A DNA stretch of 64,000 bases from Lentimicrobiaceae bacterium (lineage in GTDB: Bacteria > Bacteroidota > Bacteroidia > Bacteroidales > UBA4417): contig JAQVEX010000003.1 in the NCBI GenBank assembly GCA_028697555.1, forward strand, positions 12,450 through 76,449, written 5' to 3'. A model generated the notes under the pieces. That model was not told the DNA's origin. It was given only the letters and a program-made list of their open reading frames with translations, and searched no databases. Shown piece after piece: positions 6,518 through 60,754 of this stretch (position 1 is its first letter; every line of letters begins with the position of its first letter). The translations under genes were made by a program, and so were the position numbers.

Positions 6518-7420
6518 ATGGAAATAAAAAACTTACGCAAAGAAATACCTTTTTCGAAGAGATGGTTTAAATCGTACTCCTACATAACTATTGGCACTTT
6601 GTTGGTTTCGATGGGATACGTGCTGTTTTTAAGTCCGCACAAGATAATACCAGGCGGAATTTATGGTATATCCATTATGCTGCACCACCTGTTTAACACT
6701 CCTATTGGTATGGTTTCATTGGCTTTCAATATTCCTTTAACACTAATAGGAACAAAAATATTAGGGCCCAGGTTTGGAGCCAAAACCGTAGTTGCTTTCG
6801 TACTTACAGGTATTTTTACCGATATTATATCAATGATAAGTGGTAATGTTGCTTTGGTTCCCGATGATACATTAGTTTCGGGTTTATTCGGTGGACTTTT
6901 CGTGGGCGTTGGAGTGGCTTTTACATTTAAAGCCAAAGCCACAAGTGGCGGAACCGACGTTGTTGCTATGATTTTGCAAAAGTACACACGTCTGCCAATA
7001 GGACAATTAATGATGTCGGTTGATGCCGTTATTGTTTTTATAAGCACTATTGTTTTCAAAGATTGGACTTTACCCTTGTACAGTTTTATTTCCATTTTTG
7101 TTATAGGTAGAGTTATAGATGCTGTTATGCACGGATTTTCGTACGATAAAACTTTGTTTATCATTTCCGATAAGCATCAGGAAATACGCGACAGCATTAT
7201 AGGTGATTTGGGACGTGGTGGTACTTTCTTGATTGGTGAAGGTATGTATAAATACAAATCGAAAAAAATAATTTTTACCGTTGTTAACCCTAAGGAGTTG
7301 TACATGCTTCAAGAGTTTATTCACCGAATAGACCCTAATGCTTTTATAGCAGTACTTGATGCTAGCGAAATTTTAGGAAAAGGCTTTAAGAATTTAGAAG
7401 ATAAGTTGGACGAGAAGTAG
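6518..7420 (+). CDS. YitT family membrane protein (tandem paralog)
   Basis: 300 aa. Colinear with the preceding ORF (PHKIIPGGIYGIS, ATSGGTDVV, GGTFLIGEGMY...VVNPKE). Confidence 0.85.
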   Translation: MEIKNLRKEIPFSKRWFKSYSYITIGTLLVSMGYVLFLSPHKIIPGGIYGISIMLHHLFNTPIGMVSLAFNIPLTLIGTKILGPRFGAKTVVAFVLTGIFTDIISMISGNVALVPDDTLVSGLFGGLFVGVGVAFTFKAKATSGGTDVVAMILQKYTRLPIGQLMMSVDAVIVFISTIVFKDWTLPLYSFISIFVIGRVIDAVMHGFSYDKTLFIISDKHQEIRDSIIGDLGRGGTFLIGEGMYKYKSKKIIFTVVNPKELYMLQEFIHRIDPNAFIAVLDASEILGKGFKNLEDKLDEK

Positions 7421-7565
7421 TGGGTGCGGGTTAGTTTTGAGTTTTGAGTTTTGAGTTCCGAGTTCTGAGTTCCGAGTTCCGAGTTCCGAGTCTCCAAACT
7501 CAATACTCTCGACTCAAAACTGACAACTCACCGACCACCGACCACCAACCACCAATCACCCAAAA
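7421..7565. repeat. mosaic heptamer-array intergenic element, copy A (type II, long imperfect hairpin)
   Basis: Fills the whole spacer between the convergent yitT-like and obg genes. Order: TGGGTGCGGGTTAG, then 8 tandem TTYYGAG heptamers (7435-7490), an A/C-rich complement (ACTCAATACTCTCGACTCAAAACTGAC), then 5 tandem CACCRAC heptamers (7529-7563). The outermost TGGGTG pairs with CACCCA. Confidence 0.9.
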
Positions 7566-8558
7566 TTATTCCTCCAACAGCTTCCACAAGTGGTTTTTAA
7601 GCTCGGTTAAGCCTTTTTTGTGATGTGATGAAATAAAAACTGTAGTAATATCCTTTGGTAATTCTTTTTTCAGCATCTCTATCAGTTCGTCGTCTAACAA
7701 ATCTGATTTGCTTACGGCAAGCATCCTTTTCTTATGTACAAGTTCAGGATTGTACATTTGCAATTCGTTTAAAAGAATTTTGTATTCCTTTTTTATACTT
7801 TTCGAATCGGCGGCTATGATGAATAATAATACCGAATTACGTTCAACGTGCCTTAAAAACCTGTGTCCCAAACCTTTGCCTTCGTGAGCTCCTTCAATAA
7901 TACCGGGAATATCTGCCATAATAAACGATTTATAATCGTAGTAAGAAACTATACCCAAATTTGGTCGCAGTGTAGTAAAAGGATAATCGCCTATTTCGGG
8001 TTTTGCTGCCGAAATGGTACTCAACAAAGTTGATTTACCGGCATTTGGGAAACCAACCAAACCCACGTCGGCTAATAGTTTTAGCTCGAAAATAACCCAT
8101 GCCTCGCTACCCGACTCTCCCGGCTGTGCGTATCGTGGAGCTTGATTTGTTGACGATTTAAAATTTATATTTCCAAGTCCGCCTTTGCCGCCTTTAACAA
8201 CTATGTGCTCTTCGTTGTCTTCAACAACTTCGCAAATAGCTTCGCCTGTTTCGGAATCTCTAATTACCGTTCCTAATGGAACTTTAATAACAACATCGTC
8301 GCCATCGGCTCCGGTTTTATTGTTTCCCGAGCCGCCAACTCCGTTTCCGGCATGCAAATGTTTGGTATATTTTAAATGTAGCAATGTCCACAGTTGAGCA
8401 TCTCCTCTGACAATAATATGACCTCCGCGACCGCCGTCGCCGCCGTCGGGACCTCCCTTAGGAATTCCTCTTGCTCTGTAAAAATGAGTCGAACCGCTAC
8501 CGCCATTACCGGAACGGACGTATATTTTTACGTAATCAACAAAGTTCGATAAAGCCAT
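7566..8558 (-). CDS. obg: GTPase Obg/CgtA
   Basis: Glycine-rich Obg fold ([11 protein letters not shown]...[12 protein letters not shown]), G1 motif [10 protein letters not shown]3 motif DIPG. Confidence 0.95.
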
Positions 8559-10312: not shown

Positions 10313-10486
10313 AAAATTCTATCATTTAATTGCAAAAATGCAAAGTTAGAATTTTATTTAAATTTATTCCTGTCATTTCTAAATAAGTATGACAAATTTC
10401 ATGTTTTTTGCTGATTACTTACTTGTTTTCAAGCATTTTCATCTTTATCATTTACTTTTTTGTTGTGTTTAAAGGATAAAGCTTTT

Positions 10487-10642
10487 GCGTGTTGCGGGGT
10501 ACGAGTTGCGGGTTAGTTTTGTCCCGAAATTTCGGGACAAAACTGACAACTCACCGACCACCAACCACCAACGACCGATCACTCATCACTAATCACCAAA
10601 AGCTAACGGCTAACGGCTAACGGCTAACAGCCAAAAGCTAAT
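10487..10642. repeat. mosaic heptamer-array intergenic element, copy B (type II)
   Basis: Order: GCGTGTTGCGGGGTACGAGTTGCGGGTTAG, a perfect 30-nt palindrome AGTTTTGTCCCGAAATTTCGGGACAAAACT (10515-10544), a CACCGAC/CACCAAC/CATCACT array, then a GCTAACG x3-4 array. Lies in the divergent hpt/purE spacer. Confidence 0.9.
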
Positions 10643-10665
10643 AATTCAAAATAACTTTCAATAAC

Positions 10666-13708: not shown

Positions 13709-13820
13709 ATGTCTTTATTTATGATATTTCTGATTTAATATTTTGTAAAAATAATAATTGTGCAAAACTACTCTAAAAATGCTTGTCAATATTTTTCAAC
13801 TTTTCGATAAAACCTTGAAG

Positions 13821-13917
13821 TGGTGGCAGATGCAATGAGAAATGAGCAATGTACAGTTAACCCCGAAGTTTCGGGGCTAATTACTAATTGTTAATTATTG
13901 ATTCCCACGTACCCCAT
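13821..13917. repeat. mosaic heptamer-array intergenic element, copy C (type I, short)
   Basis: Order: TGGTGG, CAATGAG-like units, hairpin CCCCGAAGTTTCGGGG (13861-13876), CTAATTACTAATTGTTAATTATTG, then CCCACGTACCCC. Colinear with the cores of copies E and F. Lies in the divergent spacer upstream of porP. Confidence 0.85.
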
Positions 13918-20216: not shown

Positions 20217-20245
20217 AAAAAACCGTTTTTATAACGGTTTTTTTT
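20217..20245 (+). terminator. rho-independent terminator after gldN
   Basis: AAAAAACCGTT-TTTAT-AACGGTTTTTTTT: a perfect stem followed by a T-run, 23 nt after the gldN stop. Confidence 0.8.
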
Positions 20246-24950: not shown

Positions 24951-24988
24951 TAAAAAAACATAAAGACCCTGAACTAACAGGGTCTTTA
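24951..24988 (-). terminator. rho-independent terminator after the PorV/PorQ-like gene
   Basis: The minus strand reads AAAGACCCTG-TTAGTT-CAGGGTCTTT followed by ATGTTTTTTTA. 10-bp perfect stem plus a T-run, between the barrel gene stop and the greA start. Confidence 0.8.
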
Positions 24989-25031
24989 TATTTGGTGAAC
25001 AAAAAGAGTACCAAAATGTATTTCTTCTATA

Positions 25032-26113: not shown

Positions 26114-29100
26114 TTAAAATGCATTTAAGTCAATTTGACGTGGCGAACCGAAGAATTTAACAACTTTTTCGCCTTGTGGTGATTTAACATATATAATGTA
26201 AATACCTCCTGCAACAGGAATACCGGCATAGTTTGTCAAATCCCAATCGACTGAACTGATAGTTGGGTCGTCTTTAGAAAACTTACGTATTAAGTTACCA
26301 CCTGTATTGTATATCGAAATATCGCAAGTTGGAGGTAGGTTAACAATTTTTACGCGTTTATCTAATTGGTCGGTTTCGTATTGGTTATAACCGTAATACG
26401 GATTAGGTACAACTGCTATTTTATCCAAGTCATTTTCGGCTTTTGCTACATCGTTATATTCTGTTGCAACATTCTCGGTTGTAAACTTATACATGGGCCA
26501 ATAATCGTTATCAGCATGCGCTCCAGCCATTGGAACTGAGAAGTAGCGTTCGTACGGTTTTTGTACTCTTATCTGGATTTTTAAGTCGCAGTTTAGCCAC
26601 TCTCCGGTTTGAGGAGTACTGTAAGGTACAGCTACCCACATAGCATTTGAAAGCTGTTGTGCTCTGAATTGACGAGCAAGTACAGGTATAGCAGGTCTTG
26701 TAATTTGTTTAACAAAGTGTGCACAACCATCATAAGCCGGATGGTCGAATACACTTGCAGGATGTATTGGAGATGTTATACCTAATTTTGCTTTTTTGCC
26801 TGTATATGTGGACATGACGTAAATATAGTGTCTTCCACCTATTGGGAAATCAACCGGAGCATATTCGTAGTCTAATCTCAACGGAGCCGGATTAAAGAGC
26901 AAGTCAGCTCCATTTTCTTCCGGATAACGAGAGTCTTCTCCGAAAACAATGTTCAAACGTTCACCTGTTTCAACATTGATAGCGTATCCCGGGAACCAGC
27001 TCATACCATATGGGTGGATAAAGTCGGAGTTAAGTGCTGGATCAGAACTTACAACAGCTGTATCACCATTTTGATTTAATGAGCGATGTGCACGAAGTTC
27101 AAATTGCTCAACTTTTCCTTGCGATTGATTTTTGGCTCTCGACAACTCAACAACGGCACAACGTGTCCATTTTGATTTATCAGGAGTAAATACTATATCA
27201 ACACTTGACAACTGAGTATTTATGAATTGATTACGCATTGCATCACTTTGAACACTGTATGAAGGAGCTATATATCCATCACTTTGTGCAAAAATCATAG
27301 GTGACCACCTGCCTTCCAAAACTTGCTCGTAAATTCCTTGAGGATCGAAAAAGTTGCCTATAGCTTTCCAGTCCCAATTCTTAATCATACCTGCTCTAAT
27401 CCAGTCGAAAAGCTCATGACCGTCAATATCCGGAACAAAATCAATATATGGTTTTGTCGGGTCTTCAAATTCCATAGTTGCACCAAGGAATCCGTTGTTT
27501 TCCAATTGAGGTTCTCTGGTATAAACATAATCATAACCTGTTAAGTTACCTGCGGTATCATAGTCCGGTCTTATCTCAACATTTGTAACGTACAAGCCAA
27601 AGTATAGACTTTGTTGAATGTTGATAGAAAGACCTAAGTCTAAGAATAATTGTTCGTTTTTAACAACTGTACTTGTATCCGAATGGTACACTTTTCCAGT
27701 TGATAAGTCGGTCAATGTCCATGTGCCAACAGGCATTAACGTATCTTTATTTTGGAATTTATATACAACGTCATGCATAGGATCGAACTTAACAACATAT
27801 TCAGCATTTTTAACATTAAGCGGGTCGATAACTTTAACATCTATAGGTCCTCTACCTTCTTTATACTTTAAATTGTAAGCAATTGGATATGTGTCCATAC
27901 CTAAGGTGTTATTGGTTGAATCCATCATTGGTTTCGACAAAATTTCTTCAATCGAAGATTCGTCTAATTCAAGATAATTTCCACCATTTCCTTGACCTGC
28001 AATACGAGTAATAACTACACCATCACCATATTCTGCTTTAGGCGAAAGCAATCCCACAGTTTGATGAGGAATACCTGTATAAACTCTGATGTTTTTTCTA
28101 CCAGCCAAATAAGGTAGCATCTGACCATCCAACATGTCAGGATCTAGTGGATTATAGGGTTTGTAGTTATTATATGCATAAGCTAATGCCAAATAGTAGT
28201 ATTGTTTGTGATTAACAAGAGCTTCGTTAGTAAACGCGTCTTTTGTAATCTTAACTGAGTGAACAATACCTTTATTTTCGCCTCTAACTTCTTGGTAAGC
28301 TTCATTACTGTTAAGGTCGGCATTGTAATAATAGTTTATGATAGAAGAAACGTCGTTTTTAAGGTCGCATTGGAATACCGGACGAGCTTTATCAACGTCT
28401 TTAATATCGGCAACTGTAACAGTAGCATCTCTAAGTTGGAAAATTTGATAACCTTCGAAACGATATAGCGAGTCCCAAGAAACTGATGGGTCAGGTGCCT
28501 GGATACGAGGATCGTATTCTACGTATTTTTCATTAAAGTTATTTCCATCGTCAGGAGTTCTGCGGTTAGAAATGTAAATAATGATAGCTTTGTCTAATTC
28601 TCTTAAAGTTAAGTCGGGAGCATTTGGTCCGGTGATAACTTTAAAACAGTTGTCGAACAATTGCTGACATTTATCGTCAACAACTTGCAGTTTTCTTACC
28701 GAAGCCATTGGTCCTCCACTTGTTGCTCTTGCCCAAGGAATACCAACGGTAATGTAGTTAACTGCACCTGGTCTTAGAGTAAATGGTCCTGCCGACTGCA
28801 TGAAACGACGGTCGCCTGGAGGGTTACCGCTACTTTCTTCAGTCCAATCTTTAGGTCCGTTGGGTTGCAAACCACCTGTTCCCCAGTCGCAAATATCGGT
28901 ATTTCCAGGGAACATAAAGTCGCAAACAGGTCCGTATGTACCACCCTGACCCGGATAAGCTGTTCCACCATACTCCATTCTTTTACCATCTTTCCAGCGT
29001 CCTGTCAAGTAGTTATAGTAGTCTTTTGCATAATGAGGGTCACCTTGGTTTCCTGACTCGTTGTTGTGATAAACAAATCTTCTCATACCAAAACGTTCGT

Positions 29101-30394
29101 CATCAATAATTCCGTTTCCAAAGTTAACACCGTTAATTGCACATGCATTAACTAAGGTTAAAACAGAGTCGCCGGGCGACTGGTTAAGAGCAACCATTTG
29201 GAGTGTAGAGTCGTACTCAACTATAGCACAACTTCCAAAAAAGGTTGGACCTTCGTCGTAGCTGTACGGATTGAATGAAGGGTTGTCGTAACCGTCGGGG
29301 TCAAGATAAGGACCTTGGAAGAAGTCAACACCGACTGCCGGTGGATTTTCTCCGTATGTCCATACTTGATTATTACCGTCAACAGGACGACCGTTGTAGC
29401 AATATCCCAAACCTCTGATAACATCGCAACCAACATAGTCGTCGTAAGCGAAACCTAACTCAGAGTCAACCCATTGCGAGAAGTAGGTATTATTTAAGGT
29501 ATATGTAGAACGGTTAATAATTTCGTATGAGTAGAAAGTCATATCGTTAATTTCGTCGTTGGTGCTGAAAGCAAAAGCCTGAGCTCTGATTTCCAAGCCT
29601 ATAGGCTGTCCACCGGTTTCTGAGTGAACGTCGCCTTTATCATTGAACACCCACCACAAAGTTCCGTCACCTTTCAACACTTGGTCAACCAAAATACCAT
29701 TACCCTCCATTGTAGGAATATTGGTGTGGCACAACTCGTTTGTCAAGTCGTAGTACGGATAATCTCCATCTTCCCATTTGTATTCTCCGTCTCCGTTTAC
29801 GTCTTTAAAAGGAGCTAAATATCTGGGTTGGTGTAGATTTTCTTTTCCGTGTGCCGGATAGTCTCTAATTGATTCAGGCACTTGATAAGTTGGGTATGCT
29901 GACGGATTTTGGTTATAAGCCAAAAATTCATCTACTTCAGCACGAGATATCGAGAATATTTTATCGTACTCTTCGCAAACTTCTCTGGTAATAGAAGCAG
30001 GGTTATCGCCACTAACCGTGAGCGGTCCGGGGAAGTAGTCGATACCAACTTGGCGGAAACGTTGTGCAGCAAGTTTTAGCTGTCCTTGGTTGTCAAGACC
30101 TCCAATCCACAATGCTGCAGCAAACATACTGGTTTTTTTCGAACCCTTTGGAATTTCGTATTGTCCAATTTCGAAGTCCCACCACATGTCGCCGCTGGTG
30201 TTGATACGTGTTCTTACGTTGTTAATTTCGAGCCACTTAAAGTTAGCACCCGCCTTACATCCTGCGGCTGTGGCTTTTATTTGAGCAGGCGAACTTTTTT
30301 CGTATCTGTATCTTTCGGCTTGTACTTCAGACGAAAACAAGAATAAAAACCCGACTGCTAATAAGCTTAAAAGTATTTTTTTCATTTGTATCAT
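26114..30394 (-). CDS. very large secreted protein of unknown function with a T9SS-type C-terminal sorting domain
   Basis: 1426 aa. Signal peptide (LFLFSSEVQA). I recognise no catalytic domain. The last ~95 aa (VVPNPYYGYN...VKIVNLPPTCDISIYNTGGNLIRKF...VDWDLTNYAGIPVAGGIYIIYVKSPQGEKVVKFF) fit the type A CTD pattern (PNP ... IYxxxGxxV ... GxYxxxV ... K). The start could be the Met 3 codons downstream. Confidence 0.6.
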   Translation of the reverse strand: MIQMKKILLSLLAVGFLFLFSSEVQAERYRYEKSSPAQIKATAAGCKAGANFKWLEINNVRTRINTSGDMWWDFEIGQYEIPKGSKKTSMFAAALWIGGLDNQGQLKLAAQRFRQVGIDYFPGPLTVSGDNPASITREVCEEYDKIFSISRAEVDEFLAYNQNPSAYPTYQVPESIRDYPAHGKENLHQPRYLAPFKDVNGDGEYKWEDGDYPYYDLTNELCHTNIPTMEGNGILVDQVLKGDGTLWWVFNDKGDVHSETGGQPIGLEIRAQAFAFSTNDEINDMTFYSYEIINRSTYTLNNTYFSQWVDSELGFAYDDYVGCDVIRGLGYCYNGRPVDGNNQVWTYGENPPAVGVDFFQGPYLDPDGYDNPSFNPYSYDEGPTFFGSCAIVEYDSTLQMVALNQSPGDSVLTLVNACAINGVNFGNGIIDDERFGMRRFVYHNNESGNQGDPHYAKDYYNYLTGRWKDGKRMEYGGTAYPGQGGTYGPVCDFMFPGNTDICDWGTGGLQPNGPKDWTEESSGNPPGDRRFMQSAGPFTLRPGAVNYITVGIPWARATSGGPMASVRKLQVVDDKCQQLFDNCFKVITGPNAPDLTLRELDKAIIIYISNRRTPDDGNNFNEKYVEYDPRIQAPDPSVSWDSLYRFEGYQIFQLRDATVTVADIKDVDKARPVFQCDLKNDVSSIINYYYNADLNSNEAYQEVRGENKGIVHSVKITKDAFTNEALVNHKQYYYLALAYAYNNYKPYNPLDPDMLDGQMLPYLAGRKNIRVYTGIPHQTVGLLSPKAEYGDGVVITRIAGQGNGGNYLELDESSIEEILSKPMMDSTNNTLGMDTYPIAYNLKYKEGRGPIDVKVIDPLNVKNAEYVVKFDPMHDVVYKFQNKDTLMPVGTWTLTDLSTGKVYHSDTSTVVKNEQLFLDLGLSINIQQSLYFGLYVTNVEIRPDYDTAGNLTGYDYVYTREPQLENNGFLGATMEFEDPTKPYIDFVPDIDGHELFDWIRAGMIKNWDWKAIGNFFDPQGIYEQVLEGRWSPMIFAQSDGYIAPSYSVQSDAMRNQFINTQLSSVDIVFTPDKSKWTRCAVVELSRAKNQSQGKVEQFELRAHRSLNQNGDTAVVSSDPALNSDFIHPYGMSWFPGYAINVETGERLNIVFGEDSRYPEENGADLLFNPAPLRLDYEYAPVDFPIGGRHYIYVMSTYTGKKAKLGITSPIHPASVFDHPAYDGCAHFVKQITRPAIPVLARQFRAQQLSNAMWVAVPYSTPQTGEWLNCDLKIQIRVQKPYERYFSVPMAGAHADNDYWPMYKFTTENVATEYNDVAKAENDLDKIAVVPNPYYGYNQYETDQLDKRVKIVNLPPTCDISIYNTGGNLIRKFSKDDPTISSVDWDLTNYAGIPVAGGIYIIYVKSPQGEKVVKFFGSPRQIDLNAF

Positions 30395-30451: not shown

Positions 30452-33400
30452 TTAAAAGTTTAAACCTATACCCAAGCGAATCATTCTTGGTGAGCTGTAG
30501 TGATAAGGATTATTAACTCTTATTGAATACAAGTCGATAAATGTTTGAGTACTTATTTGGTTGTTTATCTCTGTTTGATACTCAGCTGCACTCAAGAATC
30601 CGTCATCATCGGGGTTACCTGTTGCAGAATAAACACCCATTATGTTTTTAGAGTTAAGAATATTTAGCACCTGTAGATAAACGTTTAGGTAATAATTCTT
30701 TTTATTTCCGTTTTTATCTTTTTGCGTAGCAAAAGTAAAGTCTTTGTCTAAACGTCCGTCGAAACGGAAAGACCATGGCATACGAGAACCGTTATACGAA
30801 CCTTCGATAATTTTTTGGACACGGTATACCGGATATATTTTGCTTGAACGTGTATAAGGAGTACCCGAACCACCGTTCATAGAAATATTTATACCTGTAT
30901 TAGCCAATATATCTTTTCCTCCAACCTTTGGACCGTTGTAGTCTTGTCCTTCGCCATAGCGGAAGTCAAAGTTAAGAACTAAAGCGTGACGTCTGTCGTG
31001 TGTTAGTGGGAATAAGTTACGCAAGTTAGGTTGTCCCGAGCTGATAAGAGCTTTTGAAGTTTCAGGATCGGAACCTGTACCGTTAGCAAACTGTAATGTG
31101 TAGCTTGCTCTTAAACGAACATTACCTGTACGGCGTAAATCGTATGTTAAAGTAAGACCTTTAACTGTACCAAAGTCTATATTATGGTATGAATAATATG
31201 TTTTAGGATATGCTCCTGTATAACGGAACGACTGGATTTGGTCTCTTGATTCGATATAGAACGCCGAAATATTAATTGACGATGTATTGGTTAGTTTTTG
31301 TTTATAACCTAACTCGTAGTTAACGTTTTGTTCGGGTTTCAAATCAGGGTTAGAGAAAGTAGGATTGCTTTCATTAGCCCAGTATAAATAGTTAACAGGG
31401 TCGAAAGTGTTAGCAGATTTAGGACGTTGTGTAATAACGTCGTAGTGAGCATAGAATAAAGCCTCATCGGTAACCGGGAATGAGAATGATATACGAGGCA
31501 TTACAGACCATTGCGGTTTGTAATCGGAGAACGAGCTATTAAAGTTTTCGCGTTCTACCTTATCTAATGTTTTAAAGTAAGGTATAAGACCTATATCTGT
31601 TTTAATAGAACTCTTTTCAGGGTCAACAACTTCGTTTCCACCTGCGTCGTACCAAACATTTTCATGTCTGTAACCTTTAACAGTAGTAGGATTTTCCATA
31701 TTATCGACGTAAATTTTATAATCATCGCCCATGCTTGCAGGGTGAGTAAAATTATTGTCTTCTCCAACTGTTCTGATAGGATATAGAGAATATGGGTCGG
31801 CAAGTACCGGCTGGTTAGCATCGAAACGGTCGACTCTAACACCTACGTTAAATACCAAATCTTCGAAAGCAAATTTATCTTGTAGATAAAATGCCATGTA
31901 AATTGGTTCTTCGGCTGCAATCGGGCGTGTATAAACTCCGTTTTCATCTCTCTTGGTAAAGAAGTCCATATGACTTGGTTTATTAGCTCCGGTAAACTTG
32001 TTGCCGTGGAAATCGTAGCCTCTGGCGTAAGCAAACTGTCTGGAACTGTTAGGACCTAACAACTCATCAGCACTAAAGAAAGTAATATCTATAGGCTTCG
32101 ACAAGGTAACGGTTCTTCTAACCATATCGTTATCGTAGTACGAAATTGTGTACGTTTCGGGATTGTACGAATCTATATCTATGTATTCGCTACCATTTGT
32201 TGGTAAGCCCATTGCTTCTCTTAATCTTCTGTCAAATACGTATTGTGTTTCGGTACCAACTAAGAATTTATAATCACGTTGGTACACATCGCACACTACT
32301 CCGTCTATTTCAATTTGTCTTTGAAGATCAGTGTCTATTGGGTTTTCTAAGTCTAACTGTTTAATATGCGAGTTTGTACTCAAATACATATGACTCCAAA
32401 AAGCTGTAGGTGCATATCCTACATAAGAATATGTTCCACGTTCGAAAGTCATACCGAATTTAACTTCGTGATTTTTAATATCGCCCGATATATTGAAGTT
32501 AGCTGTAAACTGAGTTGACGAACTCATTGAATAACCTGATTGACGTGCACCTGGCATACCAAACAAACTGTAAATTCCGCCAAAACGAGTGTTAGGGGTT
32601 TGTCCGTTTAGCAAACCACCATATCCATATAGTTCCTCTCTGTATTTAAAGCTACCAAATTGTTCGTAAACGTCTGTGGTATGGTTGGCAATAAGCGGGT
32701 TATAAGTTGAAGGTGTGAAAATGATTGCAGTATCTGCATATCCGTCAAATTCATAATAAAATCTTCTATTGGCTGTATCTGCCACCTCATTGTACGCCCT
32801 CTTCTTATGTGTATCAAACTGTCCAACATGTCCGTAAGCCATTAAGTTATCTTTTAGCTCAGCATCTTCTCTTTTGCCAAACGACTGCGAGTAGTCTGCC
32901 TGAAGCTCAAGATATACGTTCTTAAATACCGAATTGCTTTCCGGATTGTTAGGGAAGCGATGAGTATATCTACCGTAAACTCTCCAGGTATTACCACTTA
33001 CCATGCTATTGTTGTCGTAGTTGAACATTGAGTTATAATAACTGAAATCTCTTCTGGAGAATAGATTATACGAACCTCCGAAGGTAAGGTTGGCATTTTG
33101 CGAAAGAGTAACGTCGAACTTACCTGTTGCATTTATACTAAAGTTATTGCTATTACGGGTTGATTTTGAAAATTCAAGATCGTCCTTAGTAATAAATAAG
33201 GCTTTGTAATGGTTTGGGGTATTTGGTTGGAATGGATGCTCTAACATGTCTTCCAAAACATCATCTTTAATATAGTAAGATCCAATTGCAAGAGGACTTC
33301 CGTCTTTTCTATAGGTAGCATCGGCTGCTATAAAGTATCCAACAAGTGCTCTATTTGTTGTTTTGTTAACAAAAATAGGTCCTGTGATGTTAAGCCCTGC

Positions 33401-34147
33401 TCTATTATATCCGTACGGGTCTAGCAATTCTGAGGTTTGAAGTTCAAGACCTCCTCCAAACATTCTTGAAGGTCCTCTTGTTGTAACGTTGGTAATACCA
33501 CCGATAGCATCACCGTATTGTGCCGGCAAACCACCCAACATAACCGATACCTGCTCAATAGCAGATTCGGGGAGGCTGCTCGAACCTATAACTTTAATAC
33601 CGTCGATGTACATAACGTTACCTTCAGTTCTTTGTCCTCTCACACTACCAACTTCACCGTCGCGTGAAAAAACTCCACCAACGCTGGTAGCAACGGATGC
33701 AGCACTTCTGATAGGCATCTTTGCGATTTCCTCAGATGTAACTGTACCGCCTTGTACTGTGTTGTCTTTACTAATAAGAGGTACTTTGTAGTCAACCACG
33801 ACGACTTCTTCCAACTGAGTAGATGTTGACTCTAACTCAATGTCTAAGAATTCGGTTTTGTTGGCTGCAATAACAAATCCTCTGATAAGCACGGGTGAAT
33901 ATCCAACGTAAGAAACTCTTACATCGTATGTTCCCGGCTGTACCGGTTTAATTGTGTAATTTCCATCAAAATCGGTTGTACCACCGCCTGCTTGTGTGCC
34001 ACCGTGCTCAACAACAATATTTGCAAATGGAATCGGTTCTTTGGTTTTTTTATCGTAAATCTTTCCCCTCAACGCACCCGATTGAGCGTATCCAAAGGTA
34101 CTTGCGACTAAAAACCAAACGAAGAATAGGAGTATTTTTCTTTTCAT
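30452..34147 (-). CDS. TonB-dependent receptor-like outer-membrane protein with N-terminal carboxypeptidase-regulatory-like domain
   Basis: 1231 aa. Signal peptide, CarboxypepD_reg-like fold (GKIYDKKTKEPIPFANIVV...TDFDGNYTIKPVQPGTYDVRVSYVGY), plug region (RGQRTEGNVMYIDGIKV...GGLPAQYGDAIGGITNVTT), a long beta-barrel, terminal ...GIGLNF. Confidence 0.8.
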   Translation of the reverse strand: MKRKILLFFVWFLVASTFGYAQSGALRGKIYDKKTKEPIPFANIVVEHGGTQAGGGTTDFDGNYTIKPVQPGTYDVRVSYVGYSPVLIRGFVIAANKTEFLDIELESTSTQLEEVVVVDYKVPLISKDNTVQGGTVTSEEIAKMPIRSAASVATSVGGVFSRDGEVGSVRGQRTEGNVMYIDGIKVIGSSSLPESAIEQVSVMLGGLPAQYGDAIGGITNVTTRGPSRMFGGGLELQTSELLDPYGYNRAGLNITGPIFVNKTTNRALVGYFIAADATYRKDGSPLAIGSYYIKDDVLEDMLEHPFQPNTPNHYKALFITKDDLEFSKSTRNSNNFSINATGKFDVTLSQNANLTFGGSYNLFSRRDFSYYNSMFNYDNNSMVSGNTWRVYGRYTHRFPNNPESNSVFKNVYLELQADYSQSFGKREDAELKDNLMAYGHVGQFDTHKKRAYNEVADTANRRFYYEFDGYADTAIIFTPSTYNPLIANHTTDVYEQFGSFKYREELYGYGGLLNGQTPNTRFGGIYSLFGMPGARQSGYSMSSSTQFTANFNISGDIKNHEVKFGMTFERGTYSYVGYAPTAFWSHMYLSTNSHIKQLDLENPIDTDLQRQIEIDGVVCDVYQRDYKFLVGTETQYVFDRRLREAMGLPTNGSEYIDIDSYNPETYTISYYDNDMVRRTVTLSKPIDITFFSADELLGPNSSRQFAYARGYDFHGNKFTGANKPSHMDFFTKRDENGVYTRPIAAEEPIYMAFYLQDKFAFEDLVFNVGVRVDRFDANQPVLADPYSLYPIRTVGEDNNFTHPASMGDDYKIYVDNMENPTTVKGYRHENVWYDAGGNEVVDPEKSSIKTDIGLIPYFKTLDKVERENFNSSFSDYKPQWSVMPRISFSFPVTDEALFYAHYDVITQRPKSANTFDPVNYLYWANESNPTFSNPDLKPEQNVNYELGYKQKLTNTSSINISAFYIESRDQIQSFRYTGAYPKTYYSYHNIDFGTVKGLTLTYDLRRTGNVRLRASYTLQFANGTGSDPETSKALISSGQPNLRNLFPLTHDRRHALVLNFDFRYGEGQDYNGPKVGGKDILANTGINISMNGGSGTPYTRSSKIYPVYRVQKIIEGSYNGSRMPWSFRFDGRLDKDFTFATQKDKNGNKKNYYLNVYLQVLNILNSKNIMGVYSATGNPDDDGFLSAAEYQTEINNQISTQTFIDLYSIRVNNPYHYSSPRMIRLGIGLNF

Positions 34148-35058: not shown

Positions 35059-35149
35059 TTCAATAAAATAAAAAGTGTTTAATGTAAGTTGTCTAATTAT
35101 AAAAAAACTTTATCTTTATAGTTCCTTTATATTGAAACGCAAAATTGTT

Positions 35150-35572
35150 ATGAAACGTACATATAAAAATATTTTTTTTACTTTGTTATGCTCCTTTTTC
35201 ATGTTTTTATCGTGTGGCGATAAAAACTATCCTGATATACCCTACGTTAATGTCGACAGGTACTTGTATATTAACTCAATGGATTATATTCCCGTAGGTG
35301 GATACAAGTACATAGACGATGGCTACAGAGGTTTGATTGTTTACAGAATTATGACCAACGAGTTTTCGGTATTTGAAAGGTGCTGCCCACACGATCCCGA
35401 AAAGATAACAGCAAAAGTATTTGTTGAAGAATCGGGCGTTATATGTATTGACACAACTTGTGGAAGTCGTTTTAATTTGGTTGACGGAGGCAAAATTGAA
35501 GGTCCATCGATTTACCCTTTAAAAATGTATCGCCATAGCTTTGATGGGGAGGTCTTACATATATATAATTAG
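35150..35572 (+). CDS. Rieske-fold-like small lipoprotein (incomplete cluster ligands)
   Basis: Start taken at the ATG at 35150 (MKRTYKN...), not the GTG at 35075. Lipobox FLSCGD. CPH box (ERCCPHD) followed by CGSR instead of CxxH, with a GP...L..Y tail typical of Rieske-like domains. Confidence 0.5.
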   Translation: MKRTYKNIFFTLLCSFFMFLSCGDKNYPDIPYVNVDRYLYINSMDYIPVGGYKYIDDGYRGLIVYRIMTNEFSVFERCCPHDPEKITAKVFVEESGVICIDTTCGSRFNLVDGGKIEGPSIYPLKMYRHSFDGEVLHIYN

Positions 35573-35775
35573 TGGTACGGGTTACGGGTTGCGGGGTGCG
35601 GGGTGCGGGTTAGTCCCGAAGTTTCGGAAGAGTTACGAGTTATGAGTCGGGAGTTTTGAGTTAGGAGTTAGGAGTTACGAATATTTTTCCTGACTCAGAA
35701 CTCAAAACTCAGAACTAATTCACTAACCACTCATCACCCATCACCCATCACCCATCACCAACCACCGACCACCAC
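35573..35775. repeat. mosaic heptamer-array intergenic element, copy D (type II, long imperfect hairpin)
   Basis: Order: GGTTACG/GGTTGCG/GGGTGCG heptamers, GGGTTAG, hairpin TCCCGAAGTTTCGGA, GAGTTAYG-type units, a loop, complementary CTCAGAACTCAAAACTCAGAAC, then CATCACC x3 and ACCACCGACCACC. Begins right after the stop of the upstream gene. Confidence 0.9.
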
Positions 35776-35790
35776 TTGCACATTTACACA

Positions 35791-35820
35791 AAAAAAGCTG
35801 CCTTTACAGACAGCTTTTTG
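35791..35820. terminator. bidirectional rho-independent terminator (groEL on the minus strand; Rieske-like gene on the plus strand)
   Basis: AAAAAGCTG-N10-CAGCTTTTT with A-run and T-run on both sides. 26 nt beyond the groEL stop. Confidence 0.7.
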
Positions 35821-35845: not shown

Positions 35846-37480
<1,635 letters not shown>

Positions 37481-37997: not shown

Positions 37998-38032
37998 AAT
38001 AAAAAAAGTGTCAGTTTTTAGACTGACACTTT
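37998..38032 (-). terminator. rho-independent terminator after secG
   Basis: The minus strand reads AGTGTCAG-TCTAAAAA-CTGACACT followed by TTTTTTTATTTTT. 24 nt after the secG stop. Confidence 0.75.
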
Positions 38033-45258: not shown

Positions 45259-45600
45259 TTGGTGAATGGTGGTGGGTGAATGGTGGTGGGTGAATGGTGG
45301 TGAGTGATGGGTGGTGAGTGATGGGTGGTGAGTGATGGGTGGTGAGTGATGGGTGGTGAGTGATGGGTGGTGAGTGATGGGTGGTGAGTGGTGGCTTATA
45401 TCAATTATCAATTATCAATTATCAATTATCAATTATCAATGAACAATGAACCCCGAAACTTCGGGACTAATTACTAATTGTTAATTGCTAATTAAAAATT
45501 ACCACGTAACACGCAACACGTAACCCGCAACACGCAACACGCAACACGCAACCCGCAACCCGAACCCGCCAACAGCTAACAGCTAAAGGCTAAAAGCTGC
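45259..45600. repeat. mosaic heptamer-array intergenic element, copy E (type I, largest, ~340 bp)
   Basis: 3 x GGTGAATGGTGGTG plus 6 x AGTGATGGGTGGTG (nine contiguous 14-mers, 45261-45386). 5 x ATCAATT plus ATCAATG plus AACAATG (45400-45448). Hairpin CCCGAAACTTCGGG (45452-45465). CTAATTA/CTAATTG/TTAATTG units. ACACGCA/ACCCGCA heptamers (45502-45570). AACAGCT/AAAGGCT units (45571-45598). Confidence 0.95.
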
Positions 45601-49604: not shown

Positions 49605-49607
49605 TTG

Positions 49608-49780
49608 CTTGGCTGTTAGCTGTTAGCTCTTAGCCTTTAGCTGTTGGCAATGAGCAATGAGCAATGAGCAATGAGCAATGAACACCGAAACTTCGGGGTT
49701 AATTATTAATTGATAATTGTTAATTGAAAATTGCCACGCACCTCGAAACCCGCAACCCGCAACCCGTACCAACCACCACC
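49608..49780. repeat. mosaic heptamer-array intergenic element, copy F (type I)
   Basis: Order: GCTGTTA/GCTCTTA units, 5 x GCAATGA (49647-49681), hairpin CCGAAACTTCGG (49685-49696), TTAATTA/TTAATTG/ATAATTG units, CCACGCACC, CCGCAAC x2-3, then ACCAACCACCACC. Fills the whole spacer between the convergent hypothetical gene and udk. Confidence 0.95.
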
Positions 49781-58140: not shown

Positions 58141-59232
58141 ATGTACGACAAACAAACACTGAAATCTATTGCAGAAAAATTCTACATTCAAGATAGTATT
58201 ACCAATATTAAAGACAATGCTGCAGGTTTTATTAACGATACGTTTTTTCTGAACGGCGAAAAACGAAATTACATCTTGCAACGCAAAAACTCTTACGTTT
58301 TTAGCGATATAAAAGGCATGATGAACAATATTCTCGGTGTTACCGAACATATAAAAAGCAAACTTGTTAGTCAGAATAAAGACCCCGAAAAAGGCACTAT
58401 TACCTTGTTCAAAACAAAAGACGAACTGCCCTACTACATTGACGACAATGGCGAGTATTGGTCTTTGTTTTTGTTTATAGATGATACAATAACACACAAC
58501 GAAGTCAGCAATTTAAAAATAGCTTACAACGCAGGTGTAGCAACCGGCGAGTGGCAATATATGCTCAGTGATTACACAAAACCTTTGGCGGAAGTTTTAC
58601 CCGGATTTCACGACATGGCTTTCCGCTTTGAGCAATGGAACGAATGCATCAGTAACAACTTTGCTAATCGCATTGAATCGGTTAAGGACTTGGTGTTTGA
58701 AATTGAAAGTCGCAGAAATGATATTTTAAATATTAGAAAGCATTTCGACGACAATAGTATTCCCAAACGCGTTTCGCACAACGATACGAAAATTAGCAAT
58801 TTTTTATTCGATAGTCAGGACAATGTTGTTGCTCTTATTGATTTGGATACTGTTATGCGATTGTCGGTTCTGTTCGATTACGGAGATGCTATTCGTTCGT
58901 ACGTTAACACTGCTGCCGAAGATGAGCCCAACACCGACGCCGTAAACGTAGATTTCGATATTTTTAAATCGTACACCGAAGGCTACCTTAAATACGGAAA
59001 ACTATTTTTAAACAACACCGAAATAGAAAACCTGTTAAATTCGGCTATTTACATAGTATATGAACAAACTTTACGCTTTTTGGTCGATTACATAGACGGC
59101 GATAAATACTACAAAATATCATATCCCGAGCATAATTTGGTCAGAACTAAAGCCCAACTCAAATTGCTTAAAACGTTGGAGTTGAATAGAAATAGGTTGC
59201 TTGACATTGTTTACAAAGCAATCAGTGATTAG
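58141..59232 (+). CDS. N-acetylhexosamine 1-kinase-like phosphotransferase (APH fold, NahK-like)
   Basis: 363 aa. RVSHNDTKISNFLFD, LIDLDTVM and FDYGDAIR catalytic motifs, and a C-terminal YPEHNLVRTKAQLKLL block that matches Bifidobacterium NahK as I recall it. Confidence 0.7.
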   Translation: MYDKQTLKSIAEKFYIQDSITNIKDNAAGFINDTFFLNGEKRNYILQRKNSYVFSDIKGMMNNILGVTEHIKSKLVSQNKDPEKGTITLFKTKDELPYYIDDNGEYWSLFLFIDDTITHNEVSNLKIAYNAGVATGEWQYMLSDYTKPLAEVLPGFHDMAFRFEQWNECISNNFANRIESVKDLVFEIESRRNDILNIRKHFDDNSIPKRVSHNDTKISNFLFDSQDNVVALIDLDTVMRLSVLFDYGDAIRSYVNTAAEDEPNTDAVNVDFDIFKSYTEGYLKYGKLFLNNTEIENLLNSAIYIVYEQTLRFLVDYIDGDKYYKISYPEHNLVRTKAQLKLLKTLELNRNRLLDIVYKAISD

Positions 59233-59372
59233 TGGTTGGTGGTCGGGGTTGGGGTTAGTTCTGAGTTATGAGTTATGAGTTACGAGTTACGAGTTCTGAG
59301 TGTCAAAACTCCAGACTCAAAACTCGAAACTCGAAACTCACACGCAACACACAACTAATAACGCTTTATAAC
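59233..59372. repeat. mosaic heptamer-array intergenic element, copy G (type II, long imperfect hairpin)
   Basis: Order: TGGTTGGTGGTCGGGGTTGGGGTTAG, GAGTTAT/GAGTTAC/GAGTTCT heptamers, complementary CTCAAAACTCGAAACTCGAAACTC, then CACGCAACACACAAC. Fills the spacer between the convergent NahK-like and M20 genes. Confidence 0.9.
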
Positions 59373-59374
59373 CA

Positions 59375-60754
59375 CTACGCTACAATATCGTGAGCATCAG
59401 CATAATACTTGTAGAACCAAGCAATTGTTTCAATACCTTTATCGAAGCATGCAAGCTGGAAGTTTTCGTTAGGCGAGTGTAATGCATCGGTATCTAAGCC
59501 AAAGCCCATCAAAAGTGATTTAACTCCCAATACTTGTTCAAAAGTAGAAATAATTGGAATACTGCCACCGCTACGTGTTGGGTTTGGCGTTTTACCGAAT
59601 GTTGTTTCATATGCTTTTGCTGCAGCTTGGTATCCAACAGAATCGATTGGCGAAACGTATGGGAATCCTCCGTGATGCTCCGACACCTTAACCGTAACGT
59701 AATTAGGTGCAATCTTTTCTATATGGTCGATAAATAGTTTCGCTATTTTCTTAGGGTCTTGATTAGGAACTAATCGCATACTAACCTTAGCAAATGCTTT
59801 TGAAGGCAGAACCGTTTTAGAACCTTCGCCTATATACCCGCTCCAAATACCATTAACATCAAGTGCAGGACGTATTCCTGTGCATTCGTTTACCGAATAG
59901 CCTTTTTCGCACAATGTTTCTTTTATTTTGATGTTTTCTTTGTATTGGTTGATATCAAAAGGAGCACGAGCCATTAGTTCACGCTCTTCTTCAGAAACTA
60001 TAAGAACATCGTCGTAGAAACCCGGAATGTTAATTTTATGGTTTTCATCGTGCAAAGAAGCAATAATATCGGCAAGCACATTAGCCGGATTTGCAACAGC
60101 ACCGCCGTATAATCCTGAGTGTAAGTCGTGGCTTGGACCTGTAACTTCAATTTCCATATAAGCTAAACCTCTAAGTCCGGTTGTAATGCTTGGTTTGTCC
60201 AATCCTAACATCGACGTATCCGAAACAAGCATAATATCGGCTTTTAGTAGGTCTTTATTTTCGGGCAACCACTTTGCAAGAGACGGCGAGCCCATTTCTT
60301 CTTCACCTTCAAGCAAAAACTTGACGTTAACCCTCATTTGTCCGCTGCTAACCATATATTCAAATGCCTTGAGTTGCATAAACGACTGTCCTTTATCGTC
60401 GTTGGCTCCCCTAGCCCATATTCTTCCATCTCTGATTTCGGGTTCAAAAGGTGGCGAATCCCAAAGTTCAATCGGGTCGACAGGCATAACATCATAGTGT
60501 CCGTACACAAGGACTGTCGGCACATTGTCGGAAATTATACGTTCGGCATAAACAACAGGATGTCCTTCTGTTGGCATAACTTCGGCTTTGGTAGCTCCAA
60601 TTTTTAGCAAATGTTCTTTCAAATATTCGGCGGCTTTGTGCATATCCTCTTTATGAGCCGGAACAGAGCTTATCGAAGGTATTCTGATTAAACCGAATAA
60701 TTCTTCCAAAAATCGTGGTTGGTTTTCCTTAATAAATGATTTTAAATTTTCCAT
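59375..60754 (-). CDS. M20 family dipeptidase/metallopeptidase
   Basis: 459 aa. M20 metal-ligand context (YGHYDVMP, RGANDDKGQ, EGEEEMGS) and a dimerisation-domain insert. Confidence 0.85.
   Translation of the reverse strand: MENLKSFIKENQPRFLEELFGLIRIPSISSVPAHKEDMHKAAEYLKEHLLKIGATKAEVMPTEGHPVVYAERIISDNVPTVLVYGHYDVMPVDPIELWDSPPFEPEIRDGRIWARGANDDKGQSFMQLKAFEYMVSSGQMRVNVKFLLEGEEEMGSPSLAKWLPENKDLLKADIMLVSDTSMLGLDKPSITTGLRGLAYMEIEVTGPSHDLHSGLYGGAVANPANVLADIIASLHDENHKINIPGFYDDVLIVSEEERELMARAPFDINQYKENIKIKETLCEKGYSVNECTGIRPALDVNGIWSGYIGEGSKTVLPSKAFAKVSMRLVPNQDPKKIAKLFIDHIEKIAPNYVTVKVSEHHGGFPYVSPIDSVGYQAAAKAYETTFGKTPNPTRSGGSIPIISTFEQVLGVKSLLMGFGLDTDALHSPNENFQLACFDKGIETIAWFYKYYADAHDIVA

Follow-up and report, generated by a model that had tools for sequence, protein, structure and literature searches.

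Mosaic elements of tandem heptanucleotide repeats with a near-constant arm order in the intergenic spacers of a Lentimicrobiaceae genome

The stretch of DNA analysed here (the window) comprises 64 kb of a metagenome-assembled Lentimicrobiaceae (Bacteroidales) genome with a GC content of 36.9%, and 6.5% of it (~4.2 kb) is intergenic. The Obg, GroEL, YitT and APH proteins encoded in it match NCBI entries of the MDD37378xx series exactly. Three of its spacers between convergent genes, yitT/obg, Rieske/groEL and APH/M20 peptidase, carry the hairpin-type elements A, D and G, which an initial annotation had described as copies that exactly fill convergent junctions. Four further composite elements, B, C, E and F, were identified, and the seven together occupy ~30% of the intergenic DNA (Table 1). 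A, D and G belong to an intergenic, lineage-specific family of mosaic elements that contain nothing but period-7 repeats and a 16-nt core palindrome. Their tandem heptanucleotide repeats are of the type called short tandemly repeated repetitive (STRR) sequences or long simple sequence repeats (LSSR).

Element A begins with TGGGTGCGGG at the base directly after the yitT-family stop codon, as annotated initially. Its other end had been placed 2 nt before the obg stop; the gap is actually 0 nt, with CACCCAAAA (7557-7565) touching the stop codon. The eight TTYYGAG units reported for the 5' arm were recovered, whereas the matching ACTC-rich arm that they were said to face consists of only ~5 degenerate NNAACTC units. 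The arms are therefore unequal, the left one having expanded without compensation on the right, and the homogeneous GAGTTCC run in the 5' arm suggests that this expansion is recent. The best ungapped arm pairs are 73-88% complementary. Pairing of the G-rich and C-rich ends, also proposed initially, was borne out, with the outer CACCNNN array pairing with the short outer GGGTGCGGGTTAG. The 3' arm has 25 identical nt in common with the equivalent half of B.

The GAGTTNN/NNAACTC logic ascribed to D and G was found in both, and each starts at +1 after a TAG stop. Exact filling of the junction holds for A. D leaves its junction partly unfilled, with a conserved A-tract/stem/T-tract terminator (~35786-35820) between it and groEL, and G reaches to 2 nt before the M20 peptidase stop, its final ~30 nt being a tail that does not consist of heptamer repeats.

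Tandem arrays in the elements were detected with Tandem Repeats Finder (TRF); arrays of the heptanucleotide LSSR and STRR type comprise at least three 7-nt units arranged head to tail. Arrays of period 7 cover ~860-930 bp of the window, compared with 0-27 bp for periods 5, 6, 8 and 9. We counted 21 period-7 arrays of at least eight unit types and none with a period of 5, 6 or 8-11; the TRF periods in A-G were 7 (or 14/21). Every array is intergenic. The density of period-7 arrays is ~10 times that in 1.28 Mb of other Bacteroidota obg loci, which served as the background. Among the matches listed in the Obg-based contig search, relatives were only 63-72% identical and were used as a background set only; two distant Lentimicrobiaceae loci (L004, L043) showed no synteny downstream of obg. 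A-G thus have a 7-nt unit, a non-coding location and polymorphism between relatives, as heptanucleotide LSSR and STRR-type sequences do.

The elements range in length from 95 to 339 bp, and no two are colinear over their full length. Halves of different elements have exact 12-25 nt segments in common, including GGTGGTCGGTGAGTTGTCAGTTTTG in A and B and AATTAACAATTAGTAATTAG in C and E, and GGGTTAGT occurs four times, always within A, B, D or G. From the outside to the centre the order of modules is constant: GCYGTTA; GGTGRTN or GCGKGTT; TTAG; GAGTTNN or CAATTAN/GCAATGA; core. The two halves of one element usually differ in outer type, and the outer parts accordingly pair only by the general complementarity of G-rich with C-rich sequence. 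The element ends also differ between copies (TGGGTG.., TTGCTTGG.., TAAAGG..). The 16-nt core palindrome CCCGAAnnTTCGGG has five copies in the window, in B, C, D, E and F, versus 0.04 expected, and 0 copies of TCCCGAAnnTTCGGGA were found across the 1.28 Mb of other Bacteroidota loci. A scan of viral contigs for the core gave scattered single matches among those listed, no more than expected for a palindrome of 14 specified bases in a very large collection, and is uninformative. An Rfam search of the whole window returned 0 matches at the gathering score.

Table 1. Positions of the repeat elements, their modules and the neighbouring features; window coordinates unless a locus label (L number) is given
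Feature	Position	Strand	Description
YitT-family membrane protein gene	6518-7420	+	TAG stop 7418-7420 directly adjoins A
Element A	7421-7565	.	entire yitT/obg convergent spacer, 145 nt; outer GGGTGCG-GGTTAG, (GAGTTYY)x8, degenerate (NNAACTC)x5, outer (CACCNNN)x5
A 5' inner arm	7433-7491	+	eight TTYYGAG/GAGTTYY heptamers (TRF: period 7, 90-93% matches)
A 3' arm	7492-7561	+	degenerate NNAACTC units, then CACCGAC/CACCAAC array
obg (GTPase ObgE)	7566-8558	-	TAA stop directly adjoins A
Element B	10470-10645	.	divergent hpt/purE spacer; left and right modules as in A; centre is core palindrome GTCCCGAAATTTCGGGAC; outermost (GCTAACG)n array
Element C	13818-13912	.	divergent spacer; (GCAATGA)-like units, core CCCCGAAGTTTCGGGG, (CTAATTA/TTAATTG) units
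1426-aa open reading frame	26114-30394	-	very large, adjacent to the next
1231-aa open reading frame	30452-34147	-	very large
Small Rieske-type gene	35075-35572	+	TAG stop; D begins at +1
Element D	35573-35775	.	convergent spacer, after the Rieske-protein stop; G-rich (GGGTTRC/GGGGTGC) array, core-like TCCCGAAGTTTCGGAA, (GAGTTNN)x7, loop, (NNAACTC)x3, (CACCCAT/CACCNAC) array
Canonical terminator	35786-35820	.	A-tract/stem/T-tract; downstream of groEL, outside the repeat family
groEL	35846-37480	-	separated from D by its own terminator
Element E	45262-45600	.	tandem (+/+) spacer; 14-mer (2x7) GGTGGTGAGTGATG array, (TATCAAT)x6, core CCCCGAAACTTCGGGAC, (CTAATTR)n, (CACGCAA/CCCGCAA)n, (CAGCTAA)n
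Element F	49605-49779	.	fills convergent 155-aa reading frame/udk spacer; (GCTGTTA)n, (GCAATGA)x5, core ACCGAAACTTCGGGG, (TTAATTR)n, (AACCCGC)n, CCAACCACCAC
APH-family phosphotransferase (kinase) gene	58141-59232	+	TAG stop; G begins at +1
Element G	59233-59372	.	convergent APH/M20 peptidase spacer; GGTTGGTGGTCGGGGTTGGGGTTAG, (GAGTTNN)x6, (NNAACTC)x5, CACACGCAACACACAAC, non-repeat tail
M20 peptidase gene	59375-60754	-	G reaches 2 nt before stop
16-nt palindrome TCCCGAAnnTTCGGGA, window	10523-10536, 13862-13875, 35615-35628, 45452-45465, 49684-49697		
TCCCGAAnnTTCGGGA, related strains	L091 11086-11101; L094 1619-1634, 11133-11148; L098 20390-20405		
Palindrome CAATTGCCGTGTCTTTAAAGGCACGGCAATTG, related strains	L083/L088 11102-11137; L087/L089 11109-11144; L085 3190-3225		the L085 site lies in another spacer

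Elements A, D, F and G lie at convergent junctions, B and C at divergent ones and E in a tandem spacer. Each of the four convergent spacers that exceed 20 bp holds an element, compared with 1 of ~42 tandem spacers (Fisher p = 4e-4), and the two convergent gene pairs with a 17-bp spacer or an overlap have no element. In the convergent elements, a G/T-rich array in the gene's own sense starts at +1 after 7 of the 8 gene ends, groEL being the exception.

The order of the arms was nearly invariant. In all seven window elements G exceeds C in the 5' half and C exceeds G in the 3' half, weakly so in C. A metagenome scan with the pattern (GAGTTNN)x4 yielded at least 120 contigs (GC 40-67%), in which the open reading frame (ORF) calls are crude. 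Among the matches listed, NNAACTC arrays within 200 nt of GAGTT arrays were downstream of them in 24 cases and upstream in 0, and in all the sequence compared, these matches included, the G/T-rich arm came first in 33 of 34 inverted heptamer pairs of any unit. The only clear exception (L212 10741-10914) consists of (CAAAACT)n, a GC-rich central hairpin, (TTTTGAG)n and a T-run, a layout that looks like a true intrinsic terminator. The listed contigs with GAGTT arrays also contained ~3 times the background of heptamer arrays of other units, with no enrichment of other periods, indicating that the shared trait is the 7-nt step rather than the motif. Since the G/U-rich arm is first and the A/C-rich arm last, U-runs are located 5' of the stems and A-runs are located 3' of them, which is opposite to the layout of an intrinsic terminator.

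Fold-back of a G/T-rich nascent strand through G.T pairs, priming its own copying, was considered as the cause of the arm order and is unsupported, as the G/T-rich arms alone do not fold. Their minimum free energies as DNA were 0 to -0.7 kcal/mol for pure arrays and -7.4 kcal/mol for the left half of D, which contains a core-like hairpin, and none beat shuffled sequences. In other Bacteroidota, heptamer arrays have very dissimilar units: ten arrays (GACTGGA, GACGCCG, CGGAAAA and others) were seen in 21 kb of a metagenome-assembled genome (MAG) of Paludibacter sp. (L042), and hairpins with arms of complementary heptamer arrays, the G-rich arm first, at L057 4795-4879, L044 11167-11225 and L032 5557-5628.

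The whole spacer of A had been predicted to fold as a single imperfect hairpin from either strand, with minimum-free-energy folding of both strands suggested as a check. Significance was expressed as z relative to dinucleotide shuffles (100-200 per element) for RNA of both strands. Each strand of A folded into one long imperfect hairpin, at -50.8 kcal/mol (z -5.2) and -56.0 kcal/mol (z -4.4), and none of 200 shuffles was as stable; A folded as DNA gave z -3.3. For D (z -5.8/-4.8) and G (z -3.3/-5.5), 0 of 100-200 shuffles were as stable, and all three elements therefore passed the check (z -3.3 to -5.8). The overall fold of F was weak (z -1.9/-0.2), one strand being no better than shuffles. 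The variants found in other strains all still folded well (z -3.3 to -5.7). Native elements (-0.332 kcal/mol/nt) were no more stable than chimeras of left and right halves (-0.317 +/- 0.10 kcal/mol/nt), so the hairpin is not tuned at each locus, and the fold stems from the arm order and from the units that all elements draw on rather than from a match between the halves of one locus.

Orthologous loci of related strains were found by exact-protein look-ups in several MAGs and metagenomes. Between strains the spacers are 36-77% identical versus 85-99.7% nucleotide identity in the flanking genes. Every orthologous junction examined was occupied; at 92-99.7% identity of the flanking genes the content was replaced, expanded or recombined, and spacer lengths varied accordingly (A, 145/187/196/226 bp; D, 273/343 bp; G, 142/167 bp; F, 175/351 bp). 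L087 and L088 have 99.5% identical flanks and different right arms, and L083 and L088, with flanks 96.7-98% identical, have spacers that are 99.5% identical. Two left-arm and two right-arm types occur in all four combinations (window, L091, L083, L087), implying recombination, or repeated replacement, within the spacer. Unit number is likewise polymorphic, for instance TGAATGG x0 versus x4 and CACCCAT/CACTCAT x4 versus x11. The 16-nt core behaves as a clean presence/absence indel at a heptamer-unit boundary: in D it is present in the window and absent from L098, and in G it is present in L094 and absent from the window.

Conserved among these strains are the groEL terminator beside D and, in the B spacer, the hpt promoter-proximal part; the terminator is kept in L098 while the adjoining heptamer arrays are replaced. 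The variable region begins exactly at stop codons, and in the APH gene it takes in the last three codons, so that the protein ends in ..KAISD* in the window and in ..KASIC* in L094 (10001-11092), the hypervariable region supplying the stop codon. TAG stops are found in 5 of the 8 genes adjoining elements versus 8 of 47 elsewhere (p = 0.013), suggesting that the array often supplies or shapes the neighbouring stop.

Several other features of the strain loci were recorded. In some strains the obg/yitT element has another small dispersed palindrome, CAATTGCCGTGTCTTTAAAGGCACGGCAATTG, at its centre; where the flanks of the strains are 99.5% identical, its only differences are at paired positions, one T-A to A-T swap and one loop-proximal pair flipped in an inversion-like manner. 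A CGAA-rich shared module (..GTCGAAATGCCGAAG.., ..CCGAAAATGGAG..) is present in several spacers of related strains (L085 2958-3230, L083 11010-11095) and absent from the window. At the D junction of L100/L101 (10424-10723), the left heptamer arm is kept and is followed by unrelated AT-rich sequence to the contig end; either the element was the site of an insertion or rearrangement, or the contig is mis-joined. Contigs of independent short-read assemblies stop within heptamer elements (L001, L002, L086, L090, L097, L100-L103), and the unit counts of any one assembly, that of the window included, may therefore be collapsed.

What we observed in these spacers is a period of seven, an ordered pair of arms, a strictly intergenic location, hypervariability, mosaicism and generic folding. 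We favour, with a probability of about 0.6, the reading that the elements are hypermutable, recombining microsatellite mosaics that occupy all unconstrained spacer DNA, the hairpin arising generically as a by-product that perhaps acts on mRNA 3' ends in the manner of repetitive extragenic palindromic (REP) sequences. In the elements two compound arrays face each other, the G/T-rich strand running 5' to 3' toward the spacer centre from both sides, and the centre is often a short palindrome such as TCCCGAAnnTTCGGGA. Units would be gained and lost by slipped-strand mispairing, modules would be exchanged between loci and strains by recombination, and the arrays would spread over every base free of coding, promoter or terminator constraint. 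Such spreading would explain why arrays begin right after the stop codon and sometimes include it. Because both halves draw on one small unit repertoire, a long imperfect hairpin can form in either DNA strand or in a transcript of either direction. The likely effect would be a structured 3' untranslated region that slows 3' exonucleases or read-through, as REP sequences do, rather than intrinsic termination.

Several points weigh against the microsatellite-mosaic reading. The occupation of every convergent spacer longer than 20 bp, in all strains examined, could reflect a selected function rather than tolerance. The strict G/T-first arm order and the conserved module order both go beyond what slippage alone can explain. 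In 26 unrelated GAGTTNN hairpins among the metagenome matches listed, the variable dinucleotides of the two arms agreed at 0.50, compared with 0.18 +/- 0.05 by chance, and the central hairpins of L087 and L088 differ solely at paired positions. Some pairing is thus maintained, by selection or by conversion between arms.

The canonical terminators noted initially elsewhere in the window were confirmed (20217-20243, 24956-24993, 38005-38032), as was the one after D, and the distinction drawn between the elements and standard terminators held, the elements having no U-tract on either strand. A scan for GC-rich hairpins with a U-tract within 0-2 nt found none at A, F and G, and its only match inside an element was the E core, with a weak tail; the hairpins of A are followed by AAAATTATT / CTACTTCTC, without a U-tract. 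The initial annotation had raised a role as a barrier or insulation between converging polymerases. A selected bidirectional barrier would insulate converging genes through a long hairpin in the RNA of either direction, which would halt RNA polymerase or 3' exonucleases or serve as an RNase III site. The full occupation of convergent spacers compared with tandem ones, the folds on both strands, their retention in all strains despite sequence turnover and the finding of no canonical terminator of their own at yitT, obg, the 155-aa ORF, udk, APH and M20 are in keeping with such a barrier, as is the observation that Xanthomonas transcripts start or stop at G-quadruplex (G4)-capable repeats more than at controls (PMC4692102). 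We nonetheless consider it unlikely. No U-tract follows the hairpin on either strand, the arm order is opposite to a terminator layout, arms are interchangeable between loci, and F on one strand folds no better than shuffles. D has a conserved bidirectional-type terminator downstream and is therefore dispensable for termination at that junction. B and C are divergent, E is tandem, and two convergent pairs are empty; paired elements among the listed metagenome matches occur in all junction types, and a preference for convergent junctions as a general rule was not evident in that sample, with its crude ORF calls. A barrier dedicated to convergent junctions is therefore not supported, the elements are probably not dedicated terminators, and a terminator or insulator role is not favoured.

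Quite unlikely, in our judgement, is non-autonomous mobile DNA of the MITE (miniature inverted-repeat transposable element), REP/bacterial interspersed mosaic element (BIME) or small-dispersed-repeat type, copied by a transposase or hairpin-recognising enzyme encoded elsewhere, with the arrays as internal expandable parts. The exact segments common to several loci, the conserved module order, the dispersed 16-nt core with its presence/absence polymorphism, another dispersed palindrome in central position (GCCGTGnCTTTAAAGnCACGGC), present at two strain L085 loci, and the preference for sites where insertion is harmless would all suit mobility. However, the copies have no constant termini, and neither the fixed terminal inverted repeats and target-site duplications nor the uniform length of MITEs was found in A-G, whose copies are nowhere fully colinear. 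The window contains no transposase, and orthologous junctions are filled in all strains; that no filled site has an empty counterpart speaks against recent insertion. Structural or regulatory sites in the DNA itself (G4s, cruciforms or a protein bound to a 5-nt core every 7 nt), modulating the neighbouring genes, appear very improbable. The left arm of D has five tracts of at least three G (GGGTTACGGGTTGCGGGGTGCGGGGTGCGGG) in the coding strand, immediately past the stop, and so reaches the four G3 tracts required for a G4, GAGTT is constant while NN varies, such repeats of Xanthomonas and Nostoc form G4s in vitro (PMC4692102), and in Geobacter heptamer sites, mostly paired, are annotated as putative regulator sites. 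Against this, A has only two G3 tracts, most units (GAGTTNN, GCAATGA, TATCAAT, GCTGTTA and the AT-rich types) are incapable of forming a G4, the eight or more unit types are alike in length and not in motif, and near-identical strains swap content without keeping a site. None of the mosaic, barrier and mobile-element accounts explains the strict arm order or the 7-nt step, which are the features that merit further attention. The fixed step, the near-absolute G/T-first order and the fixed module order might be the footprint of a dedicated directional process of DNA synthesis or repair, a speculative and decidedly unlikely proposal in which 3' ends extended by repeat addition would come together in the spacer and be joined at the self-complementary core. 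If so, plain slippage would not be the cause, nor would selection for an RNA hairpin, and heptamer-rich genomes would have some enzyme, or the loss of a safeguard, in common.

At the strain level, arrays fill unconstrained spacer up to the stop codon, arms recombine freely, any halves pair and the G/T-rich arm is 5'; together these facts, which this family adds, argue that the hairpin follows from the architecture as a by-product instead of being a tuned terminator. In practice, such elements break short-read assemblies and can alter the last codons and the stop of neighbouring genes, and they should not be annotated as terminators or small RNAs without 3'-end data. Apart from the repeats, assignment of the two very large adjacent ORFs to rpoC (1426 aa) and rpoB (1231 aa) was refuted by the domain content of homologues: that of the 1231-aa ORF has CarboxypepD_reg/Plug/TonB-dependent-receptor domains, and that of the 1426-aa ORF has no Pfam match on record.

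No class of long microsatellites is commoner in bacteria than tandem heptamers, which, to our knowledge, have had no explanation since the cyanobacterial STRRs of 1990. Mrazek (2007) reportedly found heptanucleotides to be the dominant class of LSSR, with a sporadic phylogenetic distribution. Mazel (1990), Costa (2002) and Elhai (2008) are said to have described cyanobacterial STRR heptamers and, in Nostoc, heptamer-armed hairpins and small dispersed repeats; the hairpins are known from Nostoc tRNA-Leu introns. Like A-G, the cyanobacterial sequences reportedly comprise several intergenic families of tandem heptanucleotides, hairpins with complementary heptamer arms, embedded dispersed palindromic inserts of ~20 nt and rapid turnover between strains, while the phylum and the unit sequences differ. 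The indel behaviour of the 16-nt core may in this respect resemble that of the Nostoc small dispersed repeats. REP/BIME sequences of enterobacteria and pseudomonads are also intergenic, mosaic, composed of palindromic units that alternate in orientation and enriched at gene 3' ends, and transcribed REP hairpins without U-tracts can stabilise upstream mRNA. Unlike tandem 7-nt arrays, REPs are fixed-sequence units of 20-40 nt mobilised by REP-associated tyrosine transposases (RAYT); no REP-like consensus or RAYT gene was seen within the window, where the 16-nt core is the sole conserved palindrome. With bidirectional intrinsic terminators A-G have in common a stable hairpin between convergent genes that is readable from both strands, and they differ in having imperfect stems of 40-100 nt and no A-tract/T-tract frame.

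A further comparison is with the TAACTGA repeats, which occur in Beggiatoaceae, in cyanobacteria and in some Bacteroidetes (MacGregor 2015, PMC4679880). In Gramella, Aequorivita and Elizabethkingia, several different heptamer arrays occur in single intergenic regions, are missing from the orthologous spacers of close relatives and break assemblies (PMC4679880). Unlike A-G, most TAACTGA arrays are direct repeats situated a short way upstream of start codons and proposed as translational regulator sites, and the inverted nested arrangement and arm order of A-G are not described there (PMC4679880).

The closest counterparts are the GGGAATC heptamers of Xanthomonas and the GGGGAYT heptamers of Nostoc, which form 70-75 convergent opposite-strand pairs per genome; their array length varies between relatives at conserved loci, most arrays are transcribed, and their function was not identified (Rehm et al. 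2015, PLoS One, PMC4692102). Both sets of repeats are tandem, G-rich on one strand and strongly intergenic, mostly arranged as convergent pairs with one array per strand, capable of forming stem-loops and adjacent to stop codons, and both vary in unit number and sequence between close relatives while retaining the locus. The Rehm repeats prefer aligned ORFs, whereas the window elements favour convergent junctions, and the host here is a low-GC (37%) Bacteroidales MAG. Most A-G units, unlike the Rehm repeats, cannot form a G4, and in place of one dominant unit A-G have many unit types nested around a core palindrome, their order from the outside inward being fixed. The Lentimicrobiaceae elements, with their convergent pairs whose G-rich strand points inward and their contact with stop codons, are thus a Bacteroidales case of a known class of convergent heptanucleotide repeats, to which they add nested unit types and a dispersed 16-nt core as elaborations.

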